From positions 32,801 through 96,800 of the forward strand of contig CBDHEC010000022.1 of NCBI GenBank assembly GCA_965261975.1: 64,000 bases of DNA, read 5' to 3'. A program made the translations under genes and the position numbers. A model generated the notes under the pieces. The model was not told where the DNA came from. It saw only the letters and a list, made by a program, of their open reading frames with translations, and did no database searches. Below are positions 34,179-55,494 of this stretch, piece after piece. The stretch's first letter is position 1, and each line of letters begins with the position of its first letter. This DNA comes from Alphaproteobacteria bacterium (GTDB lineage: Bacteria > Pseudomonadota > Alphaproteobacteria > UBA6615).

Positions 34179-34715
34179 CTAGGCGGCAAGCGGCCGGGCG
34201 TTCAGTGTTTTCATGAACAGATGTGCTGCATGGTAGATCGCCAGGAAGGTACCGATCTCCATGATCTGCGCGTCCGTGTAATGCTCGCGCATCTGGTCGT
34301 AGAAGATCTTGTCGACCTTGTCCGGATCCAGGAAGAGCTGGTCGGAGAACCGCAGCGCCATACGCTCGGCGTCGGTAAAGAGCTCCGAATCCTCGTAATC
34401 GTCGCAACCTGCGTCGATACGCTCTTCGGTCAACCCTTCGGCCATGGCCTTCTTCGAACGCAGCGCCGAGAAATACGGGTCCTCAACGAAACGCGCGAGC
34501 TGGATCCGGATGATCTCCTTGAGCTGGTGATCGACCGTGCCCTTCGTGTGCAGTTCGAGCATCACACCCAACAGCGTCTTCGCCTGGGCCGGGACCCGCG
34601 CGATGATGCGTGGAAACAGCTCATCGGGGACGCCGAGTTCGACGCATCGGGTGATTAGGTCACGGAGTTCGGGATCCTCGATCTGATCGAGTTCCAGGGG
34701 GGCAAGACGCGACAT
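34179..34715 (-). CDS. AhpD/CMD-like protein lacking the CxxC motif
   Basis: GTVDHQLKEIIRIQLARFVEDPYFSALRS...FTDAERMAL...HYTDAQIME. Aligns with the upstream AhpD-like gene but has DPYF where that gene has CSYU. Confidence 0.75.
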   Translation of the reverse strand: MSRLAPLELDQIEDPELRDLITRCVELGVPDELFPRIIARVPAQAKTLLGVMLELHTKGTVDHQLKEIIRIQLARFVEDPYFSALRSKKAMAEGLTEERIDAGCDDYEDSELFTDAERMALRFSDQLFLDPDKVDKIFYDQMREHYTDAQIMEIGTFLAIYHAAHLFMKTLNARPLAA

Positions 34716-35335
34716 TATTCCGCCGCCTCGCCCTGCAGGGATTCGGGTGAATCACCATAGATCGCCATCGATTCTTCCTGGCTCACCAGACGGCCGTCCG
34801 GCGAGAACATGGGATAGAATTTGAGAGATCCGAAGAAGGTGTGGAATCCGAGATTGCCCACAAGGAACATCCCCAGCTCTGCAATTTCATCTTCACTCAG
34901 ATGGGCCCGAAGGTCATCCCAATCCGCATCGCTGAATGAGTCCACATCCGTGGACACTTTCTCGACATAGCGCATGATGGCCTTCTCCTTTTCGGTGAAG
35001 ACATCGCTGCCGGCATGATTGTTGATGCCGTCGTCGAGGAGTTTTTCGTCAAGTCCATCCCGCTTCGCCGAAGCAGACCGAACATTGCCTCAATAACTGC
35101 AATGGGCCATGCGCGACAGCATCACCCGGATTACCTCTTTGAGCTTGTGGTCGAGGGCACCCTCGTTGAACACACTAACCCAGAACAGATAGGCCTTTTC
35201 GGCCAGATCGACATTATGCCCCATGACCGCGTGGAAGCCGGGATCCGGCGCACGCAGTTCGAGGGATTTCTCGATATACGGTTTGAGCTTCGTATTCTTC
35301 AGCTCTTCGATATCGAGCAGGGTGATATTCGGCAT
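34715..35335 (-). CDS. AhpD/CMD-like selenoprotein (CxxU, Sec82), 206 aa via UGA recoding
   Basis: ORF 35090-35335 ends ...LSRMAHCSY-TGA (35092-35090). The frame continues without a stop as GNVRSASAKRDGLDEK...FTEKEKAIMRY...HLSEDEIAEL to 34715. A hairpin follows the TGA and sel genes are nearby. Confidence 0.88.
35053..35089 (-). promoter_or_regulatory. Putative bacterial SECIS element of the AhpD-like gene
   Basis: After the UGA: ...CTGCTTC-GGC-GAAGCGG stem-loop with a G-starting loop at +21. Confidence 0.65.
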
Positions 35336-35378
35336 ATCGCTCTCTCAATCATTTGGTGCTGATGCACCTTAGCAAAAA

Positions 35379-35708
35379 TCAGGCGTGTTCTTCGATGGCC
35401 TTCTTGAGCACCTGGCGGCGGTCGACGCCGGTCCGGGTCTCGACGACCTCTCCATCCTTGAAAAACATCAGGGTCGGGAAACCGCGCACGCCGTAGCGTG
35501 TCAGAAGGTCGAGATTCTCGTCACCGTCAACGGTGCCGATCACCACATTCTCGGGCAGTTCGTCGTTGACCTGCCCAAGGATCTTCTTGAGCTGTTTGCA
35601 GGGCACACAGGTCTTCGACCAGAAATCGACGACCGTCAGTCCGTCGCGGCCGAGGACTTCGCTGTCGAAATTGGAATCGTCAAATACCGAAAGGTCTTCC
35701 AACGCCAT
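35379..35708 (-). CDS. Thioredoxin family protein (atypical WSKTCVPC site)
   Basis: FDSEVL, VVDFWSKTCVPCK and YGVRGFPTLMFFKDG. Confidence 0.88.
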   Translation of the reverse strand: MALEDLSVFDDSNFDSEVLGRDGLTVVDFWSKTCVPCKQLKKILGQVNDELPENVVIGTVDGDENLDLLTRYGVRGFPTLMFFKDGEVVETRTGVDRRQVLKKAIEEHA

Positions 35709-35923
35709 GGGACACTCCGTTTCCTGTTTATCTGCCCCATTATATAGAGAACGGAAAGATTGCGAACAAACGCACAGCTGTCACAAATGCTATGCGTGGG
35801 GCTCGGCACGGATCGCCGGAATTCCGCGATTTTTCGAGGGCCGGGATTCGCCACGCCGCAACGTCTCACGCCCGCTGCGCGGTCCAGCCATGCACATGCT
35901 GCACTTCAACGGCACGGGAACGA

Positions 35924-37075
35924 CTACCTGGTGGGGACTTGTGACAATTCTTTCGCCGCCGTGGCCGCTGCATCCAGAGCGCTGGGCGCCGCGGCGCGCG
36001 ACCAGTCACGAAGCAGCGTGACCCCGGCGGCCCGCAGTTCGGTGACAAACATATCGACGGCAGCACTTCCGGGTCGACCGGCGGCATCATTCGCCGTCGC
36101 CCATTGCTGTGCCAGGGGGGCCAGGCTATCGGCCCATTGGAACCGGCGTGTCTTGAGCAATTTGGTGGTTCGCACGCCCTGGGCCTTAAGGTCGGCGAGC
36201 GCATTATCTCCGGCCTCGCAGTAAGCCTGCGCCGCGCTTTGGGTGAACGCCGTACGCGTCTCATCGATCGCGGTTCGCACCGCTTCGGGCAGCGCGGCCA
36301 GAGCCTCGGTGTTCACATTCAGCACATACGGCACCTGGGCGCCGAACCCGGTTCGCGTGTAGTGGTCCGCATCGCGTTTCAGGCCGAGCCTGCCCATCTC
36401 GCTGGTCGGCAAAACGGCGGCACCGAGCACACCGGCCTCCATGCGCGCACCCATCGTATCGTCGGGCAGGCGCTGGGGGATGCCCTGAACACCCGCGATC
36501 CAGGCCTCCAGCCGGTCGACCATCCCCACCTTCAGCCCGCGCACTTCGGCGGCGTTGCGGATCGGCTGGACCGAAATGAAGTTGTACCCGTCGCTGGCGA
36601 TGCCCGACACGAAGGTCTGGCGCGCCGCAGACATGGCGTCGGTCATGCCGCCAATTTGTTCATGCACCCTTTGGTAAGCCGCACCGACAATCACGCATGC
36701 TTCCGTCGTGAACGGCATCTGGAAGGTCAGGTTCTGTAGCGGCAGCCGGCCTGTCTCATGGTTCACGGTCACGATTCCGAATAACGCCAGGTCATCTTCA
36801 AGGGCTTCAAGCACGCCGCCCATCCGGGTCAGGGTGCCGCCATGCATTTCATCCCAGACGATCTCGCCCGCCCCGGCTTCGGCCACTCGGCGGGTGACCT
36901 CCGCCTGAAAATGAGTCCGCACAATATCGGGGACGGCATGGTTCGCCGCCAGTCCGCTCGTCACAGACAGGCGCAGAGGTTCCGGGGCCTGAGGTTCGGC
37001 CGCATGCGATACGGCAAACGGCGTCAGGGTAAATGCCGACAGGGCCACGCCTGTCAGGGCGATTCGTACACTCAT
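35924..37075 (-). CDS. TRAP transporter substrate-binding protein (DctP-like), orphan
   Basis: Signal peptide; HGGTL...VLEALED and PIRNAAEVRGLKV. Confidence 0.7.
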   Translation of the reverse strand: MSVRIALTGVALSAFTLTPFAVSHAAEPQAPEPLRLSVTSGLAANHAVPDIVRTHFQAEVTRRVAEAGAGEIVWDEMHGGTLTRMGGVLEALEDDLALFGIVTVNHETGRLPLQNLTFQMPFTTEACVIVGAAYQRVHEQIGGMTDAMSAARQTFVSGIASDGYNFISVQPIRNAAEVRGLKVGMVDRLEAWIAGVQGIPQRLPDDTMGARMEAGVLGAAVLPTSEMGRLGLKRDADHYTRTGFGAQVPYVLNVNTEALAALPEAVRTAIDETRTAFTQSAAQAYCEAGDNALADLKAQGVRTTKLLKTRRFQWADSLAPLAQQWATANDAAGRPGSAAVDMFVTELRAAGVTLLRDWSRAAAPSALDAAATAAKELSQVPTR

Positions 37076-37204
37076 TTCGGCGCCTCGTTCCTTCCTGGAG
37101 TCGGCCCACACGCCCGATCTGCGGGCGCATGTCTGCGCTTTGCATCGCTTATTGTGCGGACAAAAGGTTAATCAAGCGCATACGGTGGAGACAGGGAGGC
37201 AGAC

Positions 37205-37774
37205 ATGAAAACAATCGACATCGGTCCCGACGGCATGGCCGAACACATCGTGCGGTTCAACGAGTTGCGACCCAAGCAGGGCAACTACGCGTCCCTGGGC
37301 ATTCCCACCGAAGCCTATGAGATGCTGACCGCGAAGACCCTCTACAGCCTGCTCGCCCCGGAGAGCGCCGCTGGGTCCCACCAATTCACGTCGGCGAAGG
37401 GCCCGGATGGCCTGTCCCTGTCGATCGCCGAATGCCCGCCCGGCGACGGCCCGATGCTGCACGCTCACATGGAGACCCACGAGATTTTCTTCTGTCTCGA
37501 GGGACAGTTCGAGGTCAGCTGGGGCGACGCGGGAGAATATTCAACCGTGCTCAAGCAATTCGACATGGTCGATGTACCACTCGGCGTCACCCGTGCCTTC
37601 TGCAATGTGGGCGACGACACCGCGTTGCTGCTCGTGATCATCCTCGGCGGCAACCAGAACGATATCGGCTATGCGAAAACCGTGGGCGATCAGGTGGCCG
37701 AAAAATATGGCGCAGACGTGCGCGATGCGATCGAGACCCATACGTCCATGAAGTTCAACGTGGGAGCAGACTGA
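37205..37774 (+). CDS. Cupin domain protein
   Basis: PPGDGPMLHAHMETHEIFFCLEG...VPLGVTRAFCN. Confidence 0.85.
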   Translation: MKTIDIGPDGMAEHIVRFNELRPKQGNYASLGIPTEAYEMLTAKTLYSLLAPESAAGSHQFTSAKGPDGLSLSIAECPPGDGPMLHAHMETHEIFFCLEGQFEVSWGDAGEYSTVLKQFDMVDVPLGVTRAFCNVGDDTALLLVIILGGNQNDIGYAKTVGDQVAEKYGADVRDAIETHTSMKFNVGAD

Positions 37775-38298
37775 TGTCGACACGCACCCCCTATAAACGG
37801 CGCGCGGGCGAAGGCATCGAAATGTCCGCCGCGGATGTCGCACGTTCGGTTGCCCGCTTCGACGAGCTCGCACCGGACCCAGACGCGTTTCGCGACGCAA
37901 ATGACCCGGATATGCGCCTCGGCATCCGCTGGGTAGTTTCACCCAACGGCATGGCGGGGCCCGCAGCCATCGAGGCGCCGCACTCGTTCCATCTCTGCTA
38001 CATCCAGTCCGAGCCCGGCCATCACCCCGTACTGCACGCCCACGAGTACACCGAGACCTTCATCTGCATGCGCGGCCAGTACACGATCCACTGGGGTAAC
38101 GAGGGCGAGAACAAGGTGGTCCTGGATCCCTACGACACCTTCTCGGTGCCGCCGCACCTGATGCGCTCCGTCGAGAACACCGGCGACGAGGTAGGCATGG
38201 TGATGGTGATCTATGGCGACCATCCCGACCCGAATGCCGGGATTGTGGTTCCGCAATCAATCATCGATGCCGACGAGGCCGCCGGCCGCGATATCTAG
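37774..38298 (+). CDS. Cupin domain protein (paralog, translationally coupled)
   Basis: TGATG overlap; EPGHHPVLHAHEYTETFICMRG...VPPHLMRSVEN. Confidence 0.85.
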   Translation: MSTRTPYKRRAGEGIEMSAADVARSVARFDELAPDPDAFRDANDPDMRLGIRWVVSPNGMAGPAAIEAPHSFHLCYIQSEPGHHPVLHAHEYTETFICMRGQYTIHWGNEGENKVVLDPYDTFSVPPHLMRSVENTGDEVGMVMVIYGDHPDPNAGIVVPQSIIDADEAAGRDI

Positions 38299-38313
38299 CA
38301 GCGTTCCGTCCAC

Positions 38314-39336
38314 CTATTCTGCTGCGGCGCCCCGCCCGGTCAGATCGAACGCGTCGGCCAGCAATTCGTATGACCGCAACCGGGTTTCGAAATTATAGGT
38401 GATCGTGAGGACGAGCAGCTCCTCGAAGCCGTGTTCGTCGGCGAATGCCGAAAGCTGATCGTGCAGGCCTTCGGGCGTGCCGGTAAACCGGTTGGCCTTG
38501 TTCGCCTCGACGATCTCCAGTTCCTGCGCGTTGTAATCATAGGCCAGCGCTTCATCGGGATGGGCGTAGGGCAGATGCTGCCCATAATTGAGCTTGAGGC
38601 GCCACAGATCGCGGCTGGCGGCCAGATAATCCGCCTCTTCCTGGGTGTCGGCGCAGATGACAAACACGCCGGCATTGGTCCGCGGTGCCGCAAGCTTTCC
38701 GGAGGGTTGGAAATTCTCGCGATAATATTTGAGCACCGGTGCGGTGACCTGGGGCGCGATGAAATGCGCAAAGGAATAGGCCAACCCGAAATGCGCCGCA
38801 TAGGCCGCGCTCTGATCACTGGAGCCGAGCAGCCATACCTCCGGCGCCTCGGCGACAACCGGCGTGGCACGAACATCCTTGAAAGGTTTCGTCGCGGGCG
38901 TTTCATCGGCCAGAAACGCGACCATGTCAGCGATCTTGGTCGGGAAATACTCGATCCCGACTTCGCTGCCATAGGCGAGTGCGGCCGCGGTGACCCCGTC
39001 GCTACCCGGCGCGCGGCCGATCCCAAGATCGATCCGACCCGGATACAGATTCTCCAGCAGCTTGAAATTCTCCGCCACCTTGAGCGGTGAGTAATGGCTG
39101 AGCATCACCCCGCCCGAGCCGACCCGGATGTGCTCCGTCGCCGCGGCGACCCGGGTCACCATGATCTCCGGCGATGAGCCGGCAAAGCCCGCGGTGCCGT
39201 GATGTTCGGCCAACCAGTAACGGGTGTAGCCCAACCGCTCGGCCGCTTGTGCCAGCGCGATGGTTTCTTCGAGCGCCTGGCGGGCATCCCCGTCCTGGCG
39301 GACCGGGGACTGATCGAGGACCGAGAGTTTCACCAT
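38314..39336 (-). CDS. Luciferase-like (LLM) flavin-dependent oxidoreductase
   Basis: KLSVLDQSP, WLAEHH, GSGGVML and GRIDLGIGRAPG. Confidence 0.9.
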   Translation of the reverse strand: MVKLSVLDQSPVRQDGDARQALEETIALAQAAERLGYTRYWLAEHHGTAGFAGSSPEIMVTRVAAATEHIRVGSGGVMLSHYSPLKVAENFKLLENLYPGRIDLGIGRAPGSDGVTAAALAYGSEVGIEYFPTKIADMVAFLADETPATKPFKDVRATPVVAEAPEVWLLGSSDQSAAYAAHFGLAYSFAHFIAPQVTAPVLKYYRENFQPSGKLAAPRTNAGVFVICADTQEEADYLAASRDLWRLKLNYGQHLPYAHPDEALAYDYNAQELEIVEANKANRFTGTPEGLHDQLSAFADEHGFEELLVLTITYNFETRLRSYELLADAFDLTGRGAAAE

Positions 39337-39376
39337 CGGGATCTTCCCATCCTGTCGAGATTGTCGAGGGATCGCT

Positions 39377-40267
39377 TCACTGGTCGCCCTCCCGCGGAAG
39401 CGGCCGCAGGAAAACAGTCGCAAGAATACCCACGGTCACGATCAACGCACCGGCGATGTTGAGACCCGTCGGGATTTCGCCGAGGAACGGGATCGCAGCG
39501 AACAGTGCCAGCGCGGGCACGAGCGACCCGACGGCGGCCTGGCGGGTCGGGCCGATGGTCCGGACCGCATAGGCATGCCCGAAAATACACAAGAACGCCC
39601 CGAACACGCCGTGCACCACCGACTGCATGACGATGTCGCCAAACGGCGCGGTGATCAGCGTCGAGGGCAGGAACAGCAACCAGATCGGGACGTAGATCAG
39701 GGCGTTACCAATCAGGAGTGCCGCGAGCGACTGCATGACGGTCAGCCGCCCCGCGCGCATGCTGCCATACCAAATCGCGACCCATAGCGCCGCGCCGACA
39801 AACAGCAGGTGACCGCGCCACTGGCCGGCCACGCCACCATCGGCGAACGCATCCCAGCCGACCGCGCCGACCCCGATGACGATCGTGGCAATTCCCGCCC
39901 ACTGCCAGCGCCCGGGTCGCTCGCCGACCCAGGCCCAGGCCACGAGCGCGGCGAAAACCGGCAGCGCGCCATACATCACAACCGACGCATGGCCCACCGG
40001 TGCGAAAATCATGCCGGCGAAAAGCATCAGGATAAACGGTGCGCCGCCGAAGAAGGCAACGAGCGCATGGTCGCGCAACCGCACACGCCAGGGGTAGTAC
40101 CGAACCAGCAGGGGCACGGCGAGGATCACGGCGACCCCCATGCGCAGGCCCGCGAGATCGTAGATCGTGAGCGCGTCGGTGGTCGCACCGAGCCGACCGG
40201 CGATCAACATCACGACAACGCACGCGACGGTGCCGAGGCCGGCCGCTATTCCTCCCCAATCTTTCAT
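39377..40267 (-). CDS. EamA/DMT family transporter
   Basis: Ten TM segments; two EamA repeats (WVGERP, FLGEIP). Confidence 0.8.
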   Translation of the reverse strand: MKDWGGIAAGLGTVACVVVMLIAGRLGATTDALTIYDLAGLRMGVAVILAVPLLVRYYPWRVRLRDHALVAFFGGAPFILMLFAGMIFAPVGHASVVMYGALPVFAALVAWAWVGERPGRWQWAGIATIVIGVGAVGWDAFADGGVAGQWRGHLLFVGAALWVAIWYGSMRAGRLTVMQSLAALLIGNALIYVPIWLLFLPSTLITAPFGDIVMQSVVHGVFGAFLCIFGHAYAVRTIGPTRQAAVGSLVPALALFAAIPFLGEIPTGLNIAGALIVTVGILATVFLRPLPREGDQ

Positions 40268-40463
40268 TTGAGCTTCCTACAACCGATCCTGTGCGCTGGT
40301 GCCGTCTTTCAATCCGGTCGTCCGGACGACCCCGGTCGGAGCGAATTCGTAACCGTCGGGCACAATTGAAACAATGGGCATGGCAGATAATCACAGGTGT
40401 TGGTCGCTGGGGAGAGTATATCAGCCTTGATCGAAGCTGCCGCGAACGGAACAATCACGACCC

Positions 40464-41870
40464 ATGGCCGAACAGAAACCCGACTTCTCCGATATTCCAT
40501 CGCTCGACCGGCTCTTGCAGGCGCCCGCGGTGATCGCGCTTGCAGAATCTCATGGCCGCAGCGCGACCGTGGCGGCGTTGCGTGCGGCGCTCGACACGGC
40601 CCGCGCGGCCCTCGCAGCAGGAGACCAGGTCGATCTGGCAGAAGATCTGTTTGCCCAATCGGCCGCCGCACGGCTCGAACGCGAATCGACGCCAGGCTTA
40701 CGCCGGGTCTTCAACCTCACCGGCACGGTCCTGCACACCAACCTGGGGCGCGCGCCTCTGGCCGAGACAGCGATTGCGGCGATGGCCGACGCCGCGCGCG
40801 GCGCCAGCAACCTGGAGTTCGATCTCGAGACAGGCAAGCGCGGCGACCGGGATGTGCATGTCGAGGAGCTACTGTGCGAACTGACAGGCGCGGAAGCCGC
40901 CACCGTGGTGAACAACAATGCGGGCGCGGTGCTGTTGCTGTTGAACGCATTGGCGCTGCGCAAGGAAGTGCCCGTCTCGCGCGGCGAGCTGGTGGAAATT
41001 GGCGGCGCGTTCCGGATTCCCGACATCATGGCGCGGGCCGGTGCCAAGCTCGTTGAGGTCGGCACCACCAACCGGACCCATGCGAAGGATTTCGAAACTG
41101 CCATAAGCGCACGGACCGCGCTGGTCATGAAGGTCCACACCTCCAACTACATCGTGCAAGGCTTCACCGCCGATGTCGCAGAAGACCAGCTGGCGGCGAT
41201 CGCGCATGCCCACGACATCCCGTTCGCCGTCGATCTTGGCGCCGGTGCGCTGGTCGATCTGGAACGCTGGGGCCTGCCCCACGAACCCACCCCGCGCGAG
41301 ACCCTCGCGGCGGGGGCCGACATCATCACCTTCTCCGGCGACAAACTGCTCGGCGGACCACAGGCCGGCCTGATCGTTGGTCGGGCCGACCTGATCGCCA
41401 AACTCAAGCGGAACCCGCTGAAGCGCGCCCTGCGTTGTGACAAGGCGACCCTCGCCGCATTGGCGGCAACGCTCGGCCTTTATCGCGACCCCGACCGGCT
41501 GGACAAGCGCCTGCCCACCTTGCGTCTGCTCGCGCGCAAACCAGCCGACATTCGTGACCTCGCCGAGATGCTTGTGGACCCGGTGCGCACCGCCATCGGG
41601 AACGACTGGTCAGTCTCGGTCGACGATTGTGCCGGCCAGATCGGGTCCGGTGCCCTGCCGGTCGAGAGCCTGGACAGTGCTGCATTGGTGATCCGGCCCG
41701 TCGCGACCCGCGGACAGGGTGCGCGACTCAAGCGGCTGGCGGCCGGCTTACGCTCGTTGCCGGTCCCCGTCATCGGCCGGGTCCATGACGATGCCCTCTG
41801 GCTCGATCTGCGCTGTCTCGACGACGTGGACGGCTTCCGCGCGCAACTCAAAGAACTGCAAACATCATGA
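40464..41870 (+). CDS. selA: L-seryl-tRNA(Sec) selenium transferase
   Basis: [48 protein letters not shown] and PLP site [13 protein letters not shown]. Confidence 0.97.
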
Positions 41871-43777
41871 TCGTCGCGACCGCAGGACATATCGATCACG
41901 GCAAGACGTTGCTGGTAAAAGCGCTGACCGGCGTCGATGCCGACCGGCTGCCGGAAGAAAAGAAGCGCGGCATGACCCTCGATCTCGGTTTTGCCTATGC
42001 CGACCTCGAGAATGGTGCCCGCCTCGGCTTCATCGACGTTCCGGGCCATGAGCGCCTGGTCCACAACATGCTCGCCGGCGTGACGGGCATCGACTGCGCG
42101 CTGCTGGTGGTCGCCGCCGATGACGGGCCAATGCCCCAGACGCTCGAGCATCTGGCGATCCTGGATATTCTCGGCATCTCACGCGGCATGGTCGCGCTGA
42201 CCAAGATCGACCGCGTCGACCCGGAACGGGTCGCGGAAGTCCTGGCCGAGATCGAACTTCTGATCGGCGAAACGTCACTCGCGGGCGCCCCCATCTATCC
42301 GGTTTCGGCAATCACCGGTGACGGGATCGGCGACCTGCAGCAGCACGTGGCCGATATGGCCGCCGAAACCGAGACCCGTGCGGGCAACGGCCATTTCCGC
42401 CTCGCCGTCGACCGGGTCTTCACCGTCGCCGGCGCGGGTCTCGTGGTCACCGGCACCGCATTCGCCGGCACGGTGGCCAAGGAAGACCGGCTGTGGATCG
42501 CCGGGCATGATACCCAGGTTCGGGTGCGCGGCATTCACGCCAACAACCAGGACAGCGACGCCGGGCAGGCCGGTGACCGGCTCGCCCTCAACCTCGCCGG
42601 GCTCGACAAGGAAGACATCGAGCGTGGCGACTGGCTCGTCGCCGACCCCGCACTCGACCTGTTCCGAAAACTGGATGTCCGGCTGCACGTTGTCGCCGAT
42701 GCGAAGCGGCCCTTGCGCCACTGGACACCCGTGCATGTTCATCTCGGCGCCCGGAATGTGACGGGCCGCGTCGCGCTTTTGGGTGCCGACAGTGCGCCAC
42801 CCGGCGCCTCGGTTCTGGCCCAACTCGTGCTCGATGCACCCGTCGGGGTCTGCGTTCGTGATCGCTTCGTGATTCGCGATCAGTCGGCGCAATTCACGCT
42901 TGGCGGTGGACATGTCGTGGACCTCCATCCCCCGCGCCGGGGCCGCGCCAAGCCGGAACGGCTGGACCTGCTGACCGCACTCGACACGCCCGATCCGGTC
43001 GCCGCATTCGCCGCCGCGCTCGAGCGGTCGCCCACGGGAATTTCAATCGCGGATTTCTCGGCCGCGCGCAATCTGACCATGGAAGAGACGGCCGCGACGC
43101 TGGTCTCCACCAAGGCGGTCGTCACGGGGGATGGCGGCACGGACCTGGCGTTGTCCGCAGAGACCTGGGCAGACCGGCAGGGCGAGCTCCTCACGGCGCT
43201 CGACCAGTTCCACACGCGCTACCCCGACCGGCTCGGGCCCGCGGCGGCCCAGCTCCGCAAAAGCCTGGGACGCTATATCCCCGAACCGCTGTTCGACGCG
43301 ATCACCGCAAGGCTGGTTGCCGACAAGACCTTGTCGAGCGACGGCATGCTGTTACACCGCCCCGATCATCAGCCCGGCCTGACCGGCGATGATGCGAAAC
43401 GCTGGGATGTCATCGAGCCGCTTCTCAACGAAACACCCGAAAGCCCGCCGGTCGTGCATGACCTCGCACAGACGGCCGGGCTCCCGGTCAACGGTGTCGG
43501 CAAGACCCTCCGGCAGGCCGTCCGCATGGGCCTCGCGGTGCAGATTGCAGAGAACAGGTTTTTCACACCGGCAGCGCTACGCGCCCACGCGGAAGTCTTC
43601 GAGGCGATGGTCGCGGCCGACGGGACCGTTGGCGTGTCTCCGTTCCGGCAGAAAGCGGGCATCGGCCGGAATCTCGCCGTCGAAGTGCTGGAATATTTTG
43701 ACCGTGTGGGGCTGTCACGACGCGACGGCAACGCGCGCCATCAGGTGCGTCCGGTGGCCGAAATCTTCGGCGCCTAG
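41867..43777 (+). CDS. selB: Selenocysteine-specific elongation factor
   Basis: [29 protein letters not shown] and C-terminal winged helix [16 protein letters not shown]. Confidence 0.97.
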
Positions 43778-46442: not shown

Positions 46443-46453
46443 ACGGGAAGAAA

Positions 46454-47251: not shown

Positions 47252-47255
47252 TGAC

Positions 47256-47789: not shown

Positions 47790-48260
47790 ATGTCAGAGAA
47801 GCTCGGCATCGGTTCGGCCTTCCCCAACCTGACGATTGATCTCGTCGGCGGCGGAACGCTCAGCCTGCCCGATGACCTCGATGCAAAATATCGGGTCATC
47901 CTGTTCTATCGCGGCCACTGGTGACCCTATTGTCGCCGTCAGTTGGTCGGCTTTGCAGAATTGAAAGACGAATTTGACAAGCTGGGCGTGAAAGTCGTCG
48001 CGGCGAGTGTCGATGATGTCGAAAAGGCCCAGGAAGTCGCCGATGAGGTGAATTTCCCGGTGGGCCATGGCGTGTCCCGGGACATCGCCGACGCGCTCGG
48101 TTCCTGGTGGGAAGACCGGCGTCAGATTATTCAACCTTCCGAATTCATCGTCGGCGCCGACGGCAATGTCGTCGCGTGCAGCTACAGTGACGGCCCGCTG
48201 GGCCGGATCGATGCTGGCGATGTGGTGAAGATGGTGAACTTCTACGAATCCCGCAAATAA
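47790..48260 (+). CDS. Peroxiredoxin-like (AhpC/TSA) selenoprotein (UxxC, Sec45), 156 aa via UGA recoding
   Basis: ATG 47790 after GAGG: MSEKLGIGSAFPNLTIDLVGGGTLSLPDDLDAKYRVILFYRGHW-TGA(47922-47924)-PYCRRQL, in frame with ORF 47943-48260. FYRGxW[C/U]PYC is the family motif. Confidence 0.9.
47925..47958 (+). promoter_or_regulatory. Putative SECIS element of the Prx-like gene
   Basis: GCCGTCAGTTGGTCGGC hairpin with GGTC at +21; stem is weak. Confidence 0.5.
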
Positions 48261-48293
48261 CCTGTCACGCCGCACCGGCGTTGCAATCTGATC

Positions 48294-48330: not shown

Positions 48331-48399
48331 TCGGCAACATTTACGCACGCCCGAATGCGGCGCTAAACTCGTCCCTGAATACCGGGAGGAGACACAAAA

Positions 48400-48792
48400 A
48401 TGATCGCTTACGACCTGAACGTCGAACAGGAATGGAACCCCCAGCGCCATGTCGAGAAAATCCTCGACTCGGTTGAAGACGGGGATGTGACGGTGGCCTG
48501 CTGGGAACCGGGACAGGTGAGCCCGAACCATTGCCACCCGAATGCCACGGAGATTTATTTCTGTTTCGAGGGCGGCGGCGTCATGCGTACCCCCGACCAG
48601 ACCATCGACGTGAAACCTGGTGCCTTCATCGTCCACCCTCCTGGCGAGCTGCACGAATATGAGAACGGCCCGCAGCGCTCGCTGCTGTTCCGCGTACGCT
48701 ACGGCGGTGATTTCTCCACCCGCATCAAGGACTGGCCGTCACAGCCCGGTTACGAGCGCAGCGACGACGACCGCGCCTATTATCCGGACTAG
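48400..48792 (+). CDS. Cupin domain protein
   Basis: WEPGQVSPNHCHPNATEIYF...HPPGELHEYENG; GGAGGA RBS. Confidence 0.85.
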   Translation: MIAYDLNVEQEWNPQRHVEKILDSVEDGDVTVACWEPGQVSPNHCHPNATEIYFCFEGGGVMRTPDQTIDVKPGAFIVHPPGELHEYENGPQRSLLFRVRYGGDFSTRIKDWPSQPGYERSDDDRAYYPD

Positions 48793-48821
48793 AACGACAA
48801 CAATCATACGGGAGCAAAGAC

Positions 48822-49730
48822 ATGCGCCGAGATACAAACTTAGCCACCAAATCGGCGCGAAAGCTTCTCGCCGGTGCCGCCCTCGCCACGCTGTTGCTTG
48901 GCTCACCCGCCGCTCTGGCCGCCGACGACGGTATCGACGCGGATGATGTGGTCAGCGCGCTGGCACGTGAGGGATATCCCGTCGACCTGGATGAAGATCT
49001 GTTTGGGGAACCGATCATCGAAAGCGCCATGGGCGACACCCTGTTCGATGTCTTTTTCTTCGACTGCGACGGGGATGTCTGCGAGACGATGACCTTCAGC
49101 GTCGCGTACGAAACCGACCGCATTTCGATGCAGGAAATGAATGACTGGAACATCAACAACCTCCATGGCCAGGCCTATCTGGACGACGAGGGTGACCCCA
49201 ACCTCGATTTCACGATCTTCGCCGGTGGCGGCCTGACCGACGCCAACCTTCGTGCAATCGTTCGCCAATGGACCGTATCCGTTGACGAATTCGAGGACTA
49301 TATCGACTGGAACAGGAACAGCAGCGATGGCGCGGCAAGGCGCGAAGGGGCCGCCGTCGCTGGCGGCGGATCTACGATCGAGGTCTGCAACGAGAGCGGC
49401 GACGGAGTCTCGGTGGCCTACGCCACCGCTTCGGGCGGCACCAACAGCGCCGGTGAGACGCTGTTCCGGTCGGAGGGCTGGCTGAACATCGACGACGGCG
49501 AGTGCACGGACGTCTGGGAGAGCCCGTTCGAAAACCGCTACTACTACATCTATGCCGAAGCGGATGACGGTGCCTATGAGGGCGACTACTTCTTCTGCAC
49601 CCTCGAGGATGCCTTCGAGATCGTCGATACACAGTGCAGCGCCGATTATGAACGCAACAGCTTCCTGCAGATCGACATGTCGATCGGTGACCGCATACAG
49701 ATCGGACATATCGTCAGCCTGGATCCCTGA
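48822..49730 (+). CDS. Exported protein, YbjN-like domain plus DUF1036-like domain
   Basis: Signal peptide; FFDC...MNDWN...AYLDDEGDP (YbjN-like), then VCNES...SEGWLNIDDGEC...RYYYIYAE...FC...F...C (DUF1036-like). Confidence 0.65.
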   Translation: MRRDTNLATKSARKLLAGAALATLLLGSPAALAADDGIDADDVVSALAREGYPVDLDEDLFGEPIIESAMGDTLFDVFFFDCDGDVCETMTFSVAYETDRISMQEMNDWNINNLHGQAYLDDEGDPNLDFTIFAGGGLTDANLRAIVRQWTVSVDEFEDYIDWNRNSSDGAARREGAAVAGGGSTIEVCNESGDGVSVAYATASGGTNSAGETLFRSEGWLNIDDGECTDVWESPFENRYYYIYAEADDGAYEGDYFFCTLEDAFEIVDTQCSADYERNSFLQIDMSIGDRIQIGHIVSLDP

Positions 49731-49787
49731 TCGCGAATTTGAGACCTGCATTCACGGGTCTTCGTACCGGACAGGGCACCGGATCGC

Positions 49788-49816
49788 TTGCCCCGTCGTA
49801 CCAACTCGCCGACAAT
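49788..49816 (+). promoter_or_regulatory. Sigma70-like promoter of selC
   Basis: TTGCCC-N17-GACAAT ending 6 nt before the tRNA 5' end. Confidence 0.55.
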
Positions 49817-49822
49817 AAAGGT

Positions 49823-49918
49823 GGAGGAGGACCGTTCCCCGGTGGGGCGCCCGGTCTTCAAAACCGGTGAGGGGCGTTAGACGTGCCTGGTGGGTTCGAC
49901 TCCCACCCTCTTCCGCCA
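49823..49918 (+). tRNA. selC: tRNA-Sec (anticodon UCA)
   Basis: 96 nt; 8-bp acceptor GGAGGAGG/CCTCTTCC plus GCCA; anticodon loop CTTCAAA (TCA 49858-49860); long variable arm; GTGGG-TTCGACT-CCCAC T arm. Confidence 0.96.
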
Positions 49919-49981
49919 ATTCACGACACCCATGCGTGATCCGGGGGTGAGTCTCACCCGCTTGCTGTTTATGCTCCCGCC

Positions 49982-52213
49982 ATGATCCCGACGGTTCCCA
50001 TCGCCCGCGACATCGTTCTGGTCGGCGGCGGCCACAGCCATGTGGCGGTGCTCAAGCGGTTCGGCATGAAACCCGAACCGGGCGTGCGGTTGACCCTGAT
50101 CACCCGCGATCTGCTGACGCCCTATTCGGGCATGATCCCGGGCTACATCGCCGACCATTACAGCGAGGCCGAGGCGCATATCGATCTGCGGCCCCTGGCG
50201 GCCTTTGCGAATGCCCGCGTCATCCACGCCGCGGCAACGGGGCTCGACCTGCAGAACAACTATGTTCAGGTCGCCGGTCGGCCACCCGTGGCCTTCGACA
50301 TCGTGTCTGTCGATACCGGGTCGACACCGTCGACGGCAGACATCGAGGGCGCCGAGCACGGCCTGCCCGTGAAACCGATCGACCGTTTCCTCGATTCGTA
50401 CCATCGCCTGACCGATGAAATCAGGAACCATGACGGCCCCTTCCACATCACTGTCGCGGGCGGCGGTGCGGGCGGCGTGGAACTGTCCCTCGCGCTGCGC
50501 CACCGGCTCGGCCTGGTCGCGCCGGACCTGGGCAAGACCCCGGATGAACTACGTTTCGCCATCGTCGAGGCCGACGAAACATTGCTGCCCAGCTACAACG
50601 CCGCCGCGCGGCGCAAGCTGGAACGCGCACTCAAAGACCGGGATATCGCCGTACACACCGGTGCGGGTCTGAACCGGGTCACGCCCGACGCGGTGATAAT
50701 TGCCAACGGCGAGGTGCTGGAAAGCCACAAGACGGTCCTGGTCACATCCGCTGGCCCGCCGCGCTGGGTCGACGACAGCGACATCGCGCGCGACGAACGG
50801 GGTTTCATCCGGGTCGACGACCAGCTTCGCTCCGTCTCTCACGCGCAGCTCTTCGCGGCGGGCGATGCCGCGTCCATGGACAATCACCAACTCCCCAAGG
50901 CCGGCGTGTATGCCGTGCGGCAGGGCCCCTACCTCGCCGAGAACCTGCGCCGCGCCGCGCTTGGCAAGCCACTCAGGACATACCGTCCCCAGGGCCAGAC
51001 CCTGGCCCTGATCACCACCGGCGGCAGCCACGCCATCGCCGCGCGCGGTCCTTTCGCCATGGAAGGCGATTGGGTGTGGCGGTGGAAGGACTGGATCGAC
51101 CGGCGTTGGATGAAGAAGTACCAGGAACTGCCCGAGATGGATGCGAGCGGTGACGACGGTGAGGATACGCTGGAGGCCATGCGCTGCGGCGGCTGCGGCG
51201 CCAAGGTGCCGGCTTCGGTCCTGCGCCGCGCGCTCGATCGCCTGCCGCCGCAACATGCCGACGGCCTCGACCAGGGCCTCGATTCGCCCGACGATGCGGC
51301 CGTGCTCTCACCGCCGCCCGGCAAGGCGTTGATCCAGACCGTCGATCAGTTCCGTGCCTTCATCGACGATCCGTATCTGTTTGGCCGGATCGCGGCGAAC
51401 CACTGCCTGGGCGACATTTTCGCCATGGGCGCCGAGGCCCATTCCGCACTCGCCGCCGTCATGCTGCCCCATGGCGAGGACGACAAGACGTCCGACGACC
51501 TCTACCAGCTGCTCGCCGGGGCGACCGAGACCCTGGCCGAAGCCGGTGCCGTCCTGGCCGGCGGGCATACGGGCGAAGGTGCGGAGATGGCCTTCGGCCT
51601 GACCATCAACGGCTATGCCGAGCGCGACGCGATCCTGCGCAAGTCGGGCCTCAAAGCGGGGGATGCGCTGATCCTGACCAAGCCACTCGGTACCGGCGTG
51701 TTGTTCGCGGCCGACATGCGCGCGAAGGCCAATGGCGACGACGTGACGGCCGCATTCGAGTCCATGCAACGTTCGATCGCGCCCTGCATCCCGGTCATCC
51801 GCCAACATGGTGCGACGGCCGGTACGGATGTCACCGGGTTCGGGCTGGCCGGCCATCTGCTGGAGATGCTCAACGCCTCGGACGTGGACGCGGAATTGGC
51901 GCTGCCTGCTCTGCCGGTGTTGCCCGGCGTCACGACGCTGGTCGCCGAGGGTCATGAGAGCACCTTGCGGCCGAGTAATGAGGAATCCATCGGCAACGCC
52001 GTGCCGCTGGCCGCGCATCCGAGTTTCCCGTTGCTGTTCGACCCGCAGACCGCGGGCGGGCTCCTGTTCGGGTTGCCCGCCGATCAGGCCGACGCCTGCC
52101 TGGCGGCGCTGCGCGCCGGCCCGGCTCCGGACGCGGAAATAATCGGGCGGGCCACGCCGCGCCAGGGCAATGTCGGCGTGATCGGATTCGCCGACCAGGC
52201 GATCGTTACTTAG
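49982..52213 (+). CDS. selD: Selenide,water dikinase SelD fused to an N-terminal pyridine nucleotide-disulfide oxidoreductase domain
   Basis: N-domain GGGHSH, GGGAGG, AAGD and PKAGVYAVRQG; SelD domain MRCGGCGAKV, DDAAV, QTVD, GGHT, TKPLGTG, DVTGFGLAGHL and DPQTAGGLL. Confidence 0.94.
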   Translation: MIPTVPIARDIVLVGGGHSHVAVLKRFGMKPEPGVRLTLITRDLLTPYSGMIPGYIADHYSEAEAHIDLRPLAAFANARVIHAAATGLDLQNNYVQVAGRPPVAFDIVSVDTGSTPSTADIEGAEHGLPVKPIDRFLDSYHRLTDEIRNHDGPFHITVAGGGAGGVELSLALRHRLGLVAPDLGKTPDELRFAIVEADETLLPSYNAAARRKLERALKDRDIAVHTGAGLNRVTPDAVIIANGEVLESHKTVLVTSAGPPRWVDDSDIARDERGFIRVDDQLRSVSHAQLFAAGDAASMDNHQLPKAGVYAVRQGPYLAENLRRAALGKPLRTYRPQGQTLALITTGGSHAIAARGPFAMEGDWVWRWKDWIDRRWMKKYQELPEMDASGDDGEDTLEAMRCGGCGAKVPASVLRRALDRLPPQHADGLDQGLDSPDDAAVLSPPPGKALIQTVDQFRAFIDDPYLFGRIAANHCLGDIFAMGAEAHSALAAVMLPHGEDDKTSDDLYQLLAGATETLAEAGAVLAGGHTGEGAEMAFGLTINGYAERDAILRKSGLKAGDALILTKPLGTGVLFAADMRAKANGDDVTAAFESMQRSIAPCIPVIRQHGATAGTDVTGFGLAGHLLEMLNASDVDAELALPALPVLPGVTTLVAEGHESTLRPSNEESIGNAVPLAAHPSFPLLFDPQTAGGLLFGLPADQADACLAALRAGPAPDAEIIGRATPRQGNVGVIGFADQAIVT

Positions 52214-53451
52214 CCATGCTTGGTGTGATGGCGCTGGTGGTAGGGAACCATCGCATTCTGCGCGAGTTCGCGAATTTTCGGGTCCTCGGCATCCATTGAC
52301 CAATCGCGAACGGCAACCAGAAGCCCCCCGAGGGTCGTCTCGCCCCACAGCCAGTTGGCGACCTCGATATCGCTACCGCGGCCATCGGGACGCGCGATTG
52401 CCGCCTCGGTGTAGTAGTAGCGCAGATCATCGGCCATGCGTTTAAAGGCGACGATGACATGGGTGTCATCGATGGGAGATTCGACCGCCAGCGGTGCGAC
52501 GGCAAAGTCAGACAGGAAACGAACAATTTCTTCCGGCGTGCGTTCGGATATCCCGAACCCGGTCCGGCCCTTGCGGTTGTCGCGCGACTGCTCGTACCAG
52601 GGCCGCAGCAGCGCCACTTCCTGCAGCAGGGCTTCATGCAGCACATCGGCATCGCTCATCTCGGCAACCGGTGGTGCAAAATTGACCGGACAAGCCCAAC
52701 CATCGGGCTGTTCAGCCGCCGCCGCATCACCCGGGGGCGCATCGGGGAAATCCTCAAGCACGGGACCGTCGGTGCGTTCCAGAAGATTGAGACAATCCTC
52801 GAGCACCCGACGCTGGAACACGGGTTCATTCGGCGCACCGAAAGGGCGGCCCAGTTCAAACGGTACCGCCAGAGCGCGCGGTGGCTTGATCTGTTCGGTG
52901 TGCACCCGGATCAAACTGATCTGCGTGGTCGGGATACCCTCGCGCTCTATGAAATGTGCAAGCCCGCCCACGGCGCGCGTGCACGATGGTCAGACAGGCA
53001 CCAGCAAAACCGCGTCGACCTTGTCCGCCTTCAGGATAGCGACCATGTCGGCCACCACGGGTTCCATCCGCGCCGGCTGGGTCGCGCCCATGAACGAAAA
53101 ATGATGGTCGGCGATCGACCCGATCACACCCTCATCGGCCAGTTCTCGCAGCCGGTCGATCGGAAAGGCGACATTCACATCCTGATAGAATCCGGTCCGG
53201 TCGAAATTCGTCGACAGGTGGCTCATCACCAGATCGTCCATATCGGCGTCGCCGGGAATAACCCGGTAGTCCGCCGCATAGCCGACGAAGGGTGAATCAC
53301 CGCGGCAGTGCAGACCGGCGGTCGACAAAACGCAGATACGACGCTCGGAAAGCGGCGGACCCTCCGCGCAGGACGTCTCGCCGAATGAGGGCATCTCACT
53401 CTGGAAGTAACGGTCCCGATGCTGTGCGGGAAACTCGCTCAGTTTAACCAA
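52210..53451 (-). CDS. PrdB/GrdB-like selenoprotein (UxxC, Sec154) with extra C-terminal domain, 413 aa
   Basis: TTG start MVKLSEFP...STAGLH...DVNVAFPIDRLRELADEGVIG...FMGA...VDAVLLVPV-TGA(52992-52990)-PSCTRAVGGLAHFIEREGIPT...PPRALAVPFELGRPFG, in frame with ORF 52210-52971. Confidence 0.88.
52953..52983 (-). promoter_or_regulatory. Putative SECIS element (copy 1)
   Basis: TGCACGCGCGCC-GTG-GGCGGGCTTGCA hairpin; 31 nt identical to copy 2. Confidence 0.7.
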
Positions 53452-53461
53452 TGCGCAGATC

Positions 53462-54697
53462 TCACCCGTGGATGGTGCGATGCCGCTGATGGGTCGGGAC
53501 AATGGCTGTTACCGACAGCGCCTTGAAGCCCTTGTCGTCACTCTCCATCGCCCAGTTGCGAATCTCGACCAGGACCTTGCCCAGGGTCGTCTCACCCCAC
53601 AACCAGTTGCCGATATCCAGATCGGTAACCCGGCCATCGGGCCGCGCAATCGCCGATTCCATGTAGTAGTAGCGGATATCATCGGCCATATGCTTGAAGG
53701 CCAAAGCCGTCGGTTTGCCGTCAATCGGTGACGGCGTTTCTTCCCGGTTCACCACGAGGCTGGCGAGGAAGGCGGGGATCTCTTCGGGGGCCTTACTCGA
53801 GACACCAAAGTTCGTGCGCCCCCCGCGACTCTGCTTCGATTCCTCATACCAGGGTTTCAGCAGCGAGAGTTCCTGCAGCAATGTCTGGGTCAGAAGCTCT
53901 TCATCGCTCATGTCCTGAACCGGTGCGGCGAAGTTGACCGGGCAGGCCCAGCCTTCCGGTTGCGCCTCATCGGTTCCCGGCGGATTGTCGGGGAAGTCCT
54001 CGAGCACGGGACCCGATTCACGCTCCAGCAGCTCCAGGCAATCACGCAGCACGCGACGCTGGAAGTCCGGCTCGTTCGGACCGCCCAGGGGACGGCCAAG
54101 CTCGAACGGCACCGCAAGCGCGCGCGGTGGTTTGATTTCCTCGGCATGTTTGCGGATCAACGCAATCTGCGTCGTCGGGATGCCTTCGTCTTCAAGGTAA
54201 TGTGCAAGCCCGCCCACGGCGCGCGTGCATTGGGGTCAGACAGGGACGAGTGCGACAGCGTCGACATTGTCCGCCTTGAGGACCTTCGCGAGATCTCGCG
54301 CAATCGGCTCCATCACCGTCGGCGGGGTCGCACCCATAAAGGAAAAGTGTCGGCTCGCGACGGATCCGATCACACCTTCTTCGGCCAGCTCACTCAGGCG
54401 ATGGAAGGGAAAGGACGTGTTTACGTCCTGGTAGAATCCGCTGCGATCGAAATTGGTCGACACATGGCTCATCACCAGGTCGTCCATGTCGTAATCATCC
54501 GGAATGATTCGGTAGTCGCCGGCACCGGGCGTGAACGGATCATCTTCCCGGCGGTGCAGACCAGCGGTCGAGATCAGCGCGACGCGGCACTCGTCGAGCG
54601 GCTTAGGGGTAACCCATGGCGTGTCGCCATAATCGGGCAATTCCTGATTGATCAGCGCCTCGCGCAGATGATCAGGCATTTCGCGTAGATGAACCAT
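53462..54697 (-). CDS. PrdB/GrdB-like selenoprotein (UxxC, Sec154) with extra C-terminal domain, 411 aa (tandem paralog)
   Basis: MVHLREMP...STAGLH...FPFHRLSELAEEGVIG...VDAVALVPV-TGA(54238-54236)-PQCTRAVGGLAHYLEDEGIPT, in frame with ORF 53462-54217. Confidence 0.88.
54199..54229 (-). promoter_or_regulatory. Putative SECIS element (copy 2)
   Basis: Same 31-nt hairpin sequence, starting 7 nt after the UGA. Confidence 0.7.
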
Positions 54698-54801
54698 AAA
54701 GCCTCCACAGATCGGAATTTCCAAAAGCCTATCAGCCCGACCCACACGCAACAACGGCAGGGCCCGAACAGCACCTTTGCTCACAGCGCATTGCTAAATC
54801 G

Positions 54802-55494
54802 CTAAGCCGCGCGCATATCCGCCGCGGTGGTCCCGGTCGAGGTGTTTTCGGCGTATTTACGCCAGTTTTCGATCAGCACATCGATCGATGCCGAGCCTTC
54901 CATGACCGAGGGACGCTGTCCCATAAGCTGCAGCCAGCCCTTGAGCAGGACGCATTCGTCGGGAATTTGAAAGTCCCGATAGTGGGTCAGCACACCCACC
55001 CGCTGCATGTGTGGCAGGAAGGTCAGGTCGACCAGGCTGATGTCATCACCCATCCAGTAGGAGCCATCACCCAGCTTGCCGAGCCCCTCATGCTCCATCA
55101 TCAGCATGGCATTGGTCAGCCGCTCGGCCTGGAAGGCCTGCGCGTCTGCGTCCTGGGCCATCATCAGCTTGTAGACATGGGGTGTGAAACGGACGTTCGC
55201 GAAGTCGATCCAGATGCGCGCCTGGGCCCGGCGCACGGGGTCGGTCGGCATCAGTGGCCGGTCCGGGAAGACCTCTTCGAGATACTCGTTGATGACAGCG
55301 GATTCGAAGATCACCGCGCCGTTATGGCGGAGCACCGGAACCTTGCCGTAGGGCGAGATCGCCAGGAACCAGTCAGGCTTGTCGTTCAGATCGATCGCGG
55401 TGAGTTCGTGATCGATCCCCTTCTCGATCAACGCCATCCGGGTGCGTTGCGCGAACGGACAGGTCTGCGAACTGATGATCTCGACGTCGGCCAT
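54802..55494 (-). CDS. Glutathione S-transferase family protein (omega-like, CPF site)
   Basis: TCPFAQRTRMAL, SPYGKVPVL and FESAVINEYLEE. Confidence 0.9.
   Translation of the reverse strand: MADVEIISSQTCPFAQRTRMALIEKGIDHELTAIDLNDKPDWFLAISPYGKVPVLRHNGAVIFESAVINEYLEEVFPDRPLMPTDPVRRAQARIWIDFANVRFTPHVYKLMMAQDADAQAFQAERLTNAMLMMEHEGLGKLGDGSYWMGDDISLVDLTFLPHMQRVGVLTHYRDFQIPDECVLLKGWLQLMGQRPSVMEGSASIDVLIENWRKYAENTSTGTTAADMRAA

Follow-up and report, generated by a model that had tools for sequence, protein, structure and literature searches.

Does a chromosomal locus that carries the genes for selenocysteine (Sec) synthesis also carry genes whose in-frame TGA codons are read as Sec, and what kind of proteins would such genes encode? 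We addressed this question in a 64-kb stretch of DNA from an Alphaproteobacteria bacterium (hereafter the window), in which the feature under study occupies positions 34,179-55,494. The window is chromosomal, and ffh, ftsY, dapF, pgk and a miaB-type gene are present in it; its closest relatives in the genome collection were marine metagenome-assembled genomes (MAGs) labelled Rhodospirillaceae or Alphaproteobacteria. It was concluded that the region is very probably a selenium-utilisation neighbourhood on a marine alphaproteobacterial chromosome, in which the full Sec machinery stands together with four Sec-encoding client genes. The clients are most likely thiol/selenol oxidoreductases that act as separate enzymes and not as a single complex. 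The genes themselves, their conserved TGA codons, cysteine (Cys) homologues, a constraint on the RNA past the UGA and conserved linkage to the sel genes were observed directly; the insertion of selenium and the electron donors and substrates of the clients we infer from sequence.

Selenocysteine machinery

A first, sequence-only reading of this DNA had placed selA-selB, a selC with a UCA anticodon and a selD fusion within about 12 kb. All four were found above curated cut-offs, and 11.75 kb separate the start of selA from the end of selD. The selenocysteine synthase gene selA (40464..41870, + strand) scored 582.8 bits against TIGR00474 (cut-off 267.9), and selB, for the Sec-specific elongation factor (41867..43777, +), scored 473.5 bits against TIGR00475 (cut-off 242.25). 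The two genes overlap by 4 bases, and the C-terminus of SelB carries the winged-helix domains that bind the selenocysteine insertion sequence (SECIS), with both SelB-wing_2 and SelB-wing_3 above the Pfam cut-off. The selC gene for tRNA-Sec, anticodon UCA (49823..49918, +), was found by ARAGORN and matched Rfam RF01852 with 71.2 bits (gathering score 47). It is the sole tRNA that ARAGORN and Rfam detected in the window, and 63 nt separate it from the SelD fusion gene that follows. It was noted that this tRNA gene stands 6 kb away from selB and is not nested inside it; such nesting is described for some Alphaproteobacteria in the consulted passages of reviews.

The remaining component is a pyridine-nucleotide-disulfide oxidoreductase-SelD fusion (49982..52213, +), which scored 455.5 bits against TIGR03169 (cut-off 310) and 287.9 bits against TIGR00476 (cut-off 125). 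The fusion is of the Cys type, with a CGGCGAK motif that includes a CxxC (CGGC) and that we take to be the SelD active site. An identity as the TIGR04369 'fusion_not_SelD' was considered and rejected, the score being 486 bits against a cut-off of 700.

From the established Sec pathway and from family membership, the SelD fusion would make selenophosphate, and its flavoprotein-type N-terminal domain would presumably supply the reduced selenium. SelA would then turn Ser-tRNA-Sec into Sec-tRNA-Sec, which SelB would bring to a UGA with a downstream hairpin in the mRNA. In the four clients, a UGA of this kind would encode the redox-active residue of a CxxC-type motif.

In-frame TGA codons of the client genes

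The four client genes belong to three families, and each was found to hold a TGA at the position proposed by the sequence-only reading (35090, 47922, 52990 and 54236), within a CxxU or UxxC site. The first is an AhpD-like gene of the CMD family (34715..35335, -; 206 aa; Pfam CMD PF02627 27.7 bits, cut-off 23), whose UGA at 35090..35092 (-) would encode Sec82 in CSYU, within the CxxU context HCSYU. The second is a Prx-like gene of the AhpC-TSA/redoxin fold (47790..48260, +; 156 aa; Pfam AhpC-TSA PF00578 85.6 bits, cut-off 26), with the UGA for Sec45 at 47922..47924 (+) in the UxxC motif HWUPYC. The other two form a tandem pair of PrdB/GrdB-like genes: copy A (52210..53448, -; 412 aa; Pfam GRDB 32.4 bits, cut-off 22), with the UGA for Sec153 at 52990..52992 (-) in PVUPSC, and copy B (53462..54697, -; 411 aa; Pfam GRDB 24.6 bits, cut-off 22), with the UGA for Sec154 at 54236..54238 (-) in PVUPQC. 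A second TGA in the read-through frame of copy B, at 53462-53464, is the ordinary stop codon of that gene. In all four genes the frame runs on past the internal TGA together with the family match or the homology, as had been claimed, and the computed masses of the full products (17.2, 23.1 and 45.7-45.8 kDa) agree with the predicted sizes of roughly 17, 23 and 45 kDa. We read the four TGAs as real Sec codons because Cys stands at the site in homologues, TGA is otherwise an ordinary stop and, for the Prx-like and PrdB-like genes, the TGA is conserved in orthologues and the RNA past it is constrained.

Conservation of the TGA was assessed in orthologous DNA taken from a scan for the SelD fusion, with one genome per species and 54 loci (given L numbers here), against which the window proteins were searched with tblastn. 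The Prx-like gene was recovered in 11 loci and the PrdB-like gene in 18 loci, as 20 copies. A TGA was present at the aligned codon of the Prx-like gene in 11/11 loci and in all 20 of the 20 PrdB-like copies, including those of L010 and L024 at 40-43% protein identity. The orthologues of copy A in the two relatives with tandem copies (L007 and L019) likewise carry the TGA. With 31 independent orthologous copies that show the TGA, an assembly error at these sites is unlikely.

These counts bear on the reading in which the TGAs are true stops, so that the genes would be pseudogenes, split genes or products of sequencing error that yield truncated proteins only. Such a reading could appeal to the fact that most database entries of these families are fragments, as gene callers stop at TGA, and to the use of TGA as a normal stop here, where it ends 17 of the 45 family-supported genes in the window. 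It was nevertheless judged extremely improbable: the TGA was kept in every orthologous copy, with conserved protein sequence before and after it even where identity falls to 40%, some homologues have Cys at this position, and a complete Sec machinery adjoins the genes.

The Cys homologues were found for all three families, as the sequence-only reading had anticipated. For the PrdB-like proteins, Cys occupies the U column in 21 of 23 independent full-length homologues (alignment A6), within PVCPxCTR. Position U45 of the Prx-like protein aligns to the first Cys of the ResA CxxC, with C48 aligned to the peroxidatic Cys of Prx, and Cys stands at U45 in the homologues P0251-P0253 (P numbers denote database proteins). 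U82 of the AhpD-like protein aligns to the second Cys of the CxxC in the solved structures 2gmy and 2oyo, and the homologue P0183 has Cys there.

Other residues were also encountered at these positions, which raises the possibility that UGA is read as a different amino acid such as tryptophan (Trp, W), either generally or by near-cognate read-through, without Sec insertion. Trp stands at U82 in the AhpD-like homologues P0130-P0132 and at U45 in 11 of the 14 full-length Prx-like homologues of alignment A3 (P0250 and 10 more within P0255-P0334), with Arg in P0254 and Gln in P0325 as exceptions. The Trp residues most probably derive from gene callers that used translation table 4 on short contigs. 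General reassignment is excluded since TGA terminates 17/45 of the window's family-supported genes; tRNA-Sec, selA and selB are present, and CxxC motifs have their catalytic Cys at this position, so that a Trp would leave the site unable to carry out redox chemistry. We therefore give this alternative hardly any probability.

As claimed for standard pipelines, annotation breaks these genes at the TGA. In the database, the window itself is represented by pieces of 105 aa (P0264) and 253 aa (P0067). A survey of the best 150 representatives of 50%-identity clusters of the PrdB-like family showed 115 C-terminal pieces that begin at most 46 residues past the site (residue 161 itself in 88 of them) and 7 pieces whose end coincides with the site. 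Only 25 representatives span the site, with Cys in 21, Gly in 2, a scrambled sequence in 1 and a gap in 1. The family thus appears to be mostly Sec-containing and mostly recorded as fragments, because 122 fragment representatives stand against 21 with Cys among these best 150.

A control, and a search for additional hidden selenoprotein genes, was provided by 26 further TGA read-through frames in the window with coding-like GC. None of the 26 carried a Pfam domain across the TGA, and by this comparison the set of four genes exceeds chance. One of the 26 frames consists of two adjacent genes in the same frame.

RNA constraint downstream of the UGA

A hairpin was found after each UGA; its apical loop, 16-21 nt downstream, has G as its first or second nucleotide. 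The SECIS-like hairpins of the PrdB-like genes lie at 52957..52983 (-) for copy A, with the apical loop GUGGG, and at 54203..54229 (-) for copy B, with the apical loop GUGRG and 8 pairs in RNAalifold; the sequence of the latter is almost invariant across 22 sequences. The Prx-like gene has a short conserved hairpin 3' of its UGA (47935..47951, +), made of a GCCG/CGGC stem and one inner C-G pair. The candidate hairpin of the AhpD-like gene (35053..35083, -) comes from a single-sequence fold whose z-score is not significant, and comprises 13 bp with one bulge per side (G15 and A35) and an apical loop GGC 21 nt past the UGA.

Entropy at synonymous sites (four-fold sites in twelve-codon windows) was used as the test of these hairpins in place of covariation. 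In both the PrdB-like and the Prx-like gene, four-fold-site variation reached its gene-wide minimum at the hairpin region past the UGA. The 12 codons past the UGA of the PrdB-like gene had a mean entropy of 0.255, where the mean over the whole gene was 1.07, and codons 152-156 are the starting points of the five least variable of its 157 windows. In the Prx-like gene, the corresponding values were 0.142 and 0.887; no more than 4 of 99 windows reached this level or fell beneath it, and the five with the least variation begin at codons 42-46.

Several observations weigh against reading the locus as a selenium-utilisation neighbourhood. No compensatory changes were found in the hairpins (0/8 pairs per alignment in RNAalifold, with 22 PrdB-like and 12 Prx-like sequences), and single-sequence folding energies were no better than those of shuffled sequences (z from -0.63 to +0.47). 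The conservation of the AhpD-like TGA is drawn from protein-level hints, namely three homologues with W and fragments that begin just after the site. Much of the conserved gene order described below comes from close relatives (68-90% protein identity) and may reflect shared descent over selection for linkage. Lastly, the incorporation of selenium into the proteins is deduced from sequence.

Linkage of sel and client genes in relatives

Conservation of the neighbourhood in related genomes had been proposed as a check, and the linkage of sel and client genes was found to be conserved. The order in relatives is selA-selB-BON-PhyH-MBL-bicupin-Prx-like(Sec)-cupin-(YbjN/DUF1036)-tRNA-Sec-SelD fusion-PrdB-like(Sec)-GST-MoCo large subunit, where GST denotes a glutathione S-transferase gene and MoCo the molybdenum cofactor. 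It was kept, whole or as far as the DNA covered it in part, in 18 of the 20 loci whose SelD fusion has at least 68% identity (L001-L009, L014-L020, L022 and L023), and L012 and L021 showed the SelD fusion only. The tRNA-Sec lies directly upstream of the SelD fusion in 16 of the 25 related loci scanned. A tandem PrdB-like pair was seen in L007 and, in part, in L019; the other relatives have the B-type copy alone. It was noted that in L017 the PrdB-like gene has been lost between the SelD fusion and the GST gene (12196-12671), with the Prx-like Sec gene and tRNA-Sec kept.

PrdB-like or Prx-like Sec genes remain beside sel genes in more distant loci as well. On a single strand of L010, selA-selB are followed by tRNA-Sec and by the SelD fusion with a PrdB-like Sec gene; L024 has selB, selA and a PrdB-like Sec gene inside 6 kb, and in L011 a Prx-like Sec gene lies 4 kb from the SelD fusion. 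Among 30 further distant loci that bear the fusion (Marinobacter, Vreelandella, Burkholderiales and others), the DNA covered gave no tblastn match to selA, selB or a client gene, and no tRNA-Sec was found in the 6 of these 30 that were scanned for it.

The arrangement can be compared to the selA-selB-selC operon with fdhA that was described for Alpha-, Beta- and Gammaproteobacteria in the consulted part of Zhang et al. 2006 (PMC1794560), where it was also argued that transfer of the Sec trait needs a co-transferred selenoprotein gene. Common to both is a cluster in which the sel genes are accompanied by one or more selenoprotein genes. Here, however, the linked clients are PrdB-like and Prx-like, and selC is detached from selB and stands beside selD. 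The absence of fdh from the window, as noted in the sequence-only reading, was borne out by Pfam scans of the window's long open reading frames (ORFs), which gave no formate dehydrogenase domain. The part of a 2026 review that was consulted (PMC13188914) treats selenoprotein operons under a heading of their own and likewise names Prx-like together with AhpD-like.

Identity of the PrdB-like pair

We sought to place the two 45-kDa proteins, which are 63% identical to each other and both end in HG. Ocean metagenome papers label the marine UxxC proteins of pfam07355 as PrdB, a proline reductase, and the window's proteins share their Pfam family, motif and habitat. The consulted part of the Sargasso Sea paper (PMC1088965) lists 42 PrdB genes with UxxC, and that of the Global Ocean Sampling (GOS) paper (PMC2398784) lists 235 PrdB genes with Sec against 110 with Cys, which matches the predominance of Sec seen here.

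If that label held, the pair would be true B subunits of D-proline (or glycine/betaine) reductase. In support, both copies pass the Pfam GRDB cut-off, their best NCBIfam match is PrdB (E 2e-34), and their UxxC is the motif that the consulted parts of the metagenome papers list for PrdB. Residues ~50-250 of the PrdB-like proteins align to positions 24-221 of the 238 in the PrdB profile, clostridial PrdB also has its Sec in UxxC, and the C-terminal third of GrdB, GrdF and GrdH aligns to the same domain. The PF07355 GRDB superfamily threshold was, however, passed narrowly, with PV[U/C]PxCTR nearly invariant in alignment A6, and the more specific models were not reached: copies A and B scored 111.1 and 118.9 bits against TIGR04483 PrdB (equivalog cut-off 300) and 56.2 and 38.8 bits against TIGR01918, the selenoprotein B subfamily (cut-off 65.45). 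Pfam scans of the long ORFs of the window showed no PrdA, GrdE, GrdA or PrdC family, and none of these families occurred in the ORFs scanned beside the PrdB-like gene in L010 and L024. Unlike clostridial PrdB and GrdB, the proteins thus stand in the window without the pyruvoyl partner (PrdA/GrdE), GrdA or PrdC, and they carry ~165 additional C-terminal residues. These residues are modelled as an all-helical domain that gave no Pfam match at E up to 1. The host clade of marine alphaproteobacterial MAGs does not consist of Stickland fermenters, and we take its members to be aerobes. Taken with these points, a role as proline, glycine or betaine reductase subunits is improbable.

The structural model gives a consistent picture. 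The AlphaFold model of copy B has a pLDDT of 92.5 and a pTM of 0.91, and in it the UxxC is flanked by a beta-strand (147-151) and a helix (157-170). A third conserved Cys, in an ACP motif near residue 251, falls in the linker. No relative of solved structure was found by sequence, and Foldseek returned 0 matches at E <= 0.001 for the model, the best having E 0.056 and a TM-score of ~0.2.

We assign the PrdB-like proteins to a branch of their own within the GRDB superfamily, since the PrdB and selenoprotein-B cut-offs were failed, a helical domain is added and no pyruvoyl partner lies in the window. By analogy with GrdB/PrdB chemistry, they are most likely thiol-dependent reductases that would act through a U154-C157 selenenyl-sulfide. 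On balance we lean, by a modest degree, towards the view that the 45-kDa proteins form a distinct two-domain, mostly-Sec selenoenzyme family of marine alphaproteobacteria, which would not be proline or glycine reductase subunits but would carry out a still-uncharacterised reductive reaction and may keep the Sec trait in place. This view combines a PrdB-like alpha/beta domain with UxxC, a private helical domain and the lack of a pyruvoyl partner in the window with the position of the gene, which is the client most consistently found beside sel genes in this lineage, in the place that fdhA has elsewhere in Proteobacteria.

If this is true, one of the most abundant selenoprotein families of the ocean would be a mislabelled enzyme of reductive chemistry. 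The confident model and the conserved neighbours, namely the SelD fusion and either GST or a D-2-hydroxyacid dehydrogenase, may guide experiments on the PrdB-like proteins. The latter gene, for a D-isomer-specific 2-hydroxyacid dehydrogenase, was noted downstream of the PrdB-like gene in L010 (13418-14380, +) and L024 (4094-5047, -), with no GST; it is a possible clue to the PrdB-like substrate.

AhpD-like gene, thioredoxin and Cys-less paralogue

The AhpD-like protein missed the curated subfamilies, with 41.3 bits against TIGR01926 (cut-off 81.8) and 40 bits against NF053654 (cut-off 310), the model of which is named 'YciW-related (seleno)protein'. Directly behind it lies a Cys-less paralogue (P0008; 34179..34715, -; 178 aa), whose start overlaps the stop of the AhpD-like gene and which has DPYF where its neighbour has CSYU. 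This AhpD/YciW-like paralogue matched NF053654 (E 1.3e-13) and TIGR01926 without reaching the cut-off of either. Four proteins from betaproteobacterial MAGs (P0135, P0141, P0147 and P0150; 307-352 aa) carry the post-UGA part of the AhpD-like protein with a copy of the paralogue fused behind it, so that 34715-35335 and 34179-34715 correspond to one gene in those MAGs. The fusion suggests that the two proteins act together.

A thioredoxin gene (35379..35708, -; 109 aa; Pfam Thioredoxin 82.4 bits), with the active site CVPC, immediately precedes the AhpD-like gene in the same orientation. The thioredoxin, AhpD-like and paralogue genes look like one operon, and they are the only redox-type genes of the region that do so.

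Relation to known selenoprotein families

All four client families and the Ndh-SelD fusion are already known from ocean metagenomes, with the families on record since 2005-2008, and the present finding belongs to these known kinds. Besides PrdB, the consulted part of the Sargasso Sea paper (PMC1088965) gives 22 Prx-like genes with UxxC and 27 AhpD-like genes with CxxU, and that of the GOS paper (PMC2398784) gives 299 for AhpD-like 1 and 225 for Prx-like 1. In the same part of the latter, almost half of the Cys-type SelDs are Ndh-SelD fusions with CxxC.

The Prx-like protein is a typical member of Prx-like 1, or 'Prx-like thiol:disulfide oxidoreductase' (pfam00578, UxxC), as this family is presented in the consulted descriptions, with an AhpC-TSA fold and UxxC where true peroxiredoxins have TxxC. 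The AhpD-like protein shares with the AhpD-like selenoproteins (CxxU; COG2128/TIGR01926, pfam02627), an abundant marine family in these sources, the CMD fold and a CxxU instead of the CxxC of solved relatives. It differs in its subfamily scores below cut-off and in its pairing with a Cys-less paralogue, which does not appear in the AhpD-like descriptions consulted. The SelD fusion has the domain order of the Ndh-SelD fusions (TIGR03169 and SelD) and is likewise of the Cys type with CGGC; it differs in having tRNA-Sec directly upstream and a Sec client directly downstream, as opposed to the 30 distant fusion loci without a tblastn match to sel or client genes. From the marine 'PrdB', which the papers label a proline reductase, the window's proteins differ in the failed cut-offs, the extra helical domain and the lack of PrdA in the window; they also form a tandem pair, an arrangement shared with L007 and L019.

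What appears to be new is the placement and conservation of the island in a marine alphaproteobacterial clade, the PrdB-like and Prx-like genes as sel-linked clients in place of fdhA, the pairing or fusion of an AhpD-like Sec protein with a Cys-less paralogue, and the evidence that the marine 'PrdB' differs from the proline reductase subunit. Word searches of the open-access literature found no paper on this particular island, on an alphaproteobacterial 'PrdB-like' family or on its non-PrdB nature. The four selenoprotein genes split at TGA by automatic annotation are a clean and checkable case, and families known mostly from short metagenome reads now have a genomic address in a marine alphaproteobacterial MAG clade. 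Hundreds of database fragments, and at least 18 related genomes, call for the same re-annotation.

Glutathione S-transferase and the redox module

The sequence-only reading had grouped thioredoxin, AhpD-Sec, Prx-Sec, the two PrdB-like proteins and an omega-like GST into one thiol/selenol redox module. All of these genes were found. The GST gene (54802..55512, -) precedes PrdB-like copy B in the same orientation; its product is of the Cys type, with the CPF site in TCPFAQR, and generic GST_N models (Pfam GST_N_2 and GST_N_3) were its only matches. The Cys codon is TGT or TGC in 17/17 orthologues. Of 16 loci, 11 have a gap of -3 to 36 nt between the GST and MoCo genes and the remaining 5 have one of 71 to 197 nt, and the distance between the GST and PrdB-like genes was 109-142 nt in 11 loci and 480-4103 nt in 5. 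Membership of GST in the selenium set is doubtful, as it lies closer to the MoCo gene and is kept in L017 without a PrdB-like gene. A gene with DUF2652 and SRPBCC (polyketide-cyclase-like) domains at 55601-56701 (-), between the GST and MoCo genes, is an insertion specific to the window, the gap in the related loci (n = 16) being at most 197 nt.

That the six proteins co-operate as one module is unlikely. All six are thiol or selenol redox-type folds inside 21 kb, thioredoxin adjoins AhpD-Sec, and the consulted part of the GOS paper (PMC2398784) reports one read with neighbouring Prx-like 1 and AhpD-like 2 genes. The genes are, however, distributed over both strands and at least 4 transcription units, and they are interleaved with BON, PhyH, MBL, cupin, YbjN/DUF1036 and transporter genes. 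GST adjoins the MoCo gene in relatives, the PrdB-like gene of L010 and L024 has a D-2-hydroxyacid dehydrogenase gene beside it where GST is absent, and most relatives have one PrdB-like copy only. The grouping therefore stands as an inventory of genes, and 'redox module' would be a reasonable label for their predicted chemistry, with a single functional unit being improbable.

Other features of the window

Three large-subunit genes of the xanthine-dehydrogenase/CODH molybdopterin family were noted, at 31780-34104 (+), 56808-59258 (-) and 59695-62106 (-); no adjacent gene for an FAD or 2Fe-2S subunit came up in Pfam scans. Against models of Se-dependent xanthine dehydrogenase they scored 198-216 bits (cut-off 830), and nothing points to the use of a selenium cofactor. 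An Rfam 'ffh sRNA' match (RF01793) at 3610-3659 (-), directly 5' of ffh (2170-3561, -), scored 35.7 bits against a gathering score of 35. Two overlapping amidase ORFs were found at 15995-17320 (-) and 17199-18413 (-), of which the upstream one matches positions 41-202 of the 445 in the Amidase model only; a frameshift, a split gene or a pair of paralogues may account for them.

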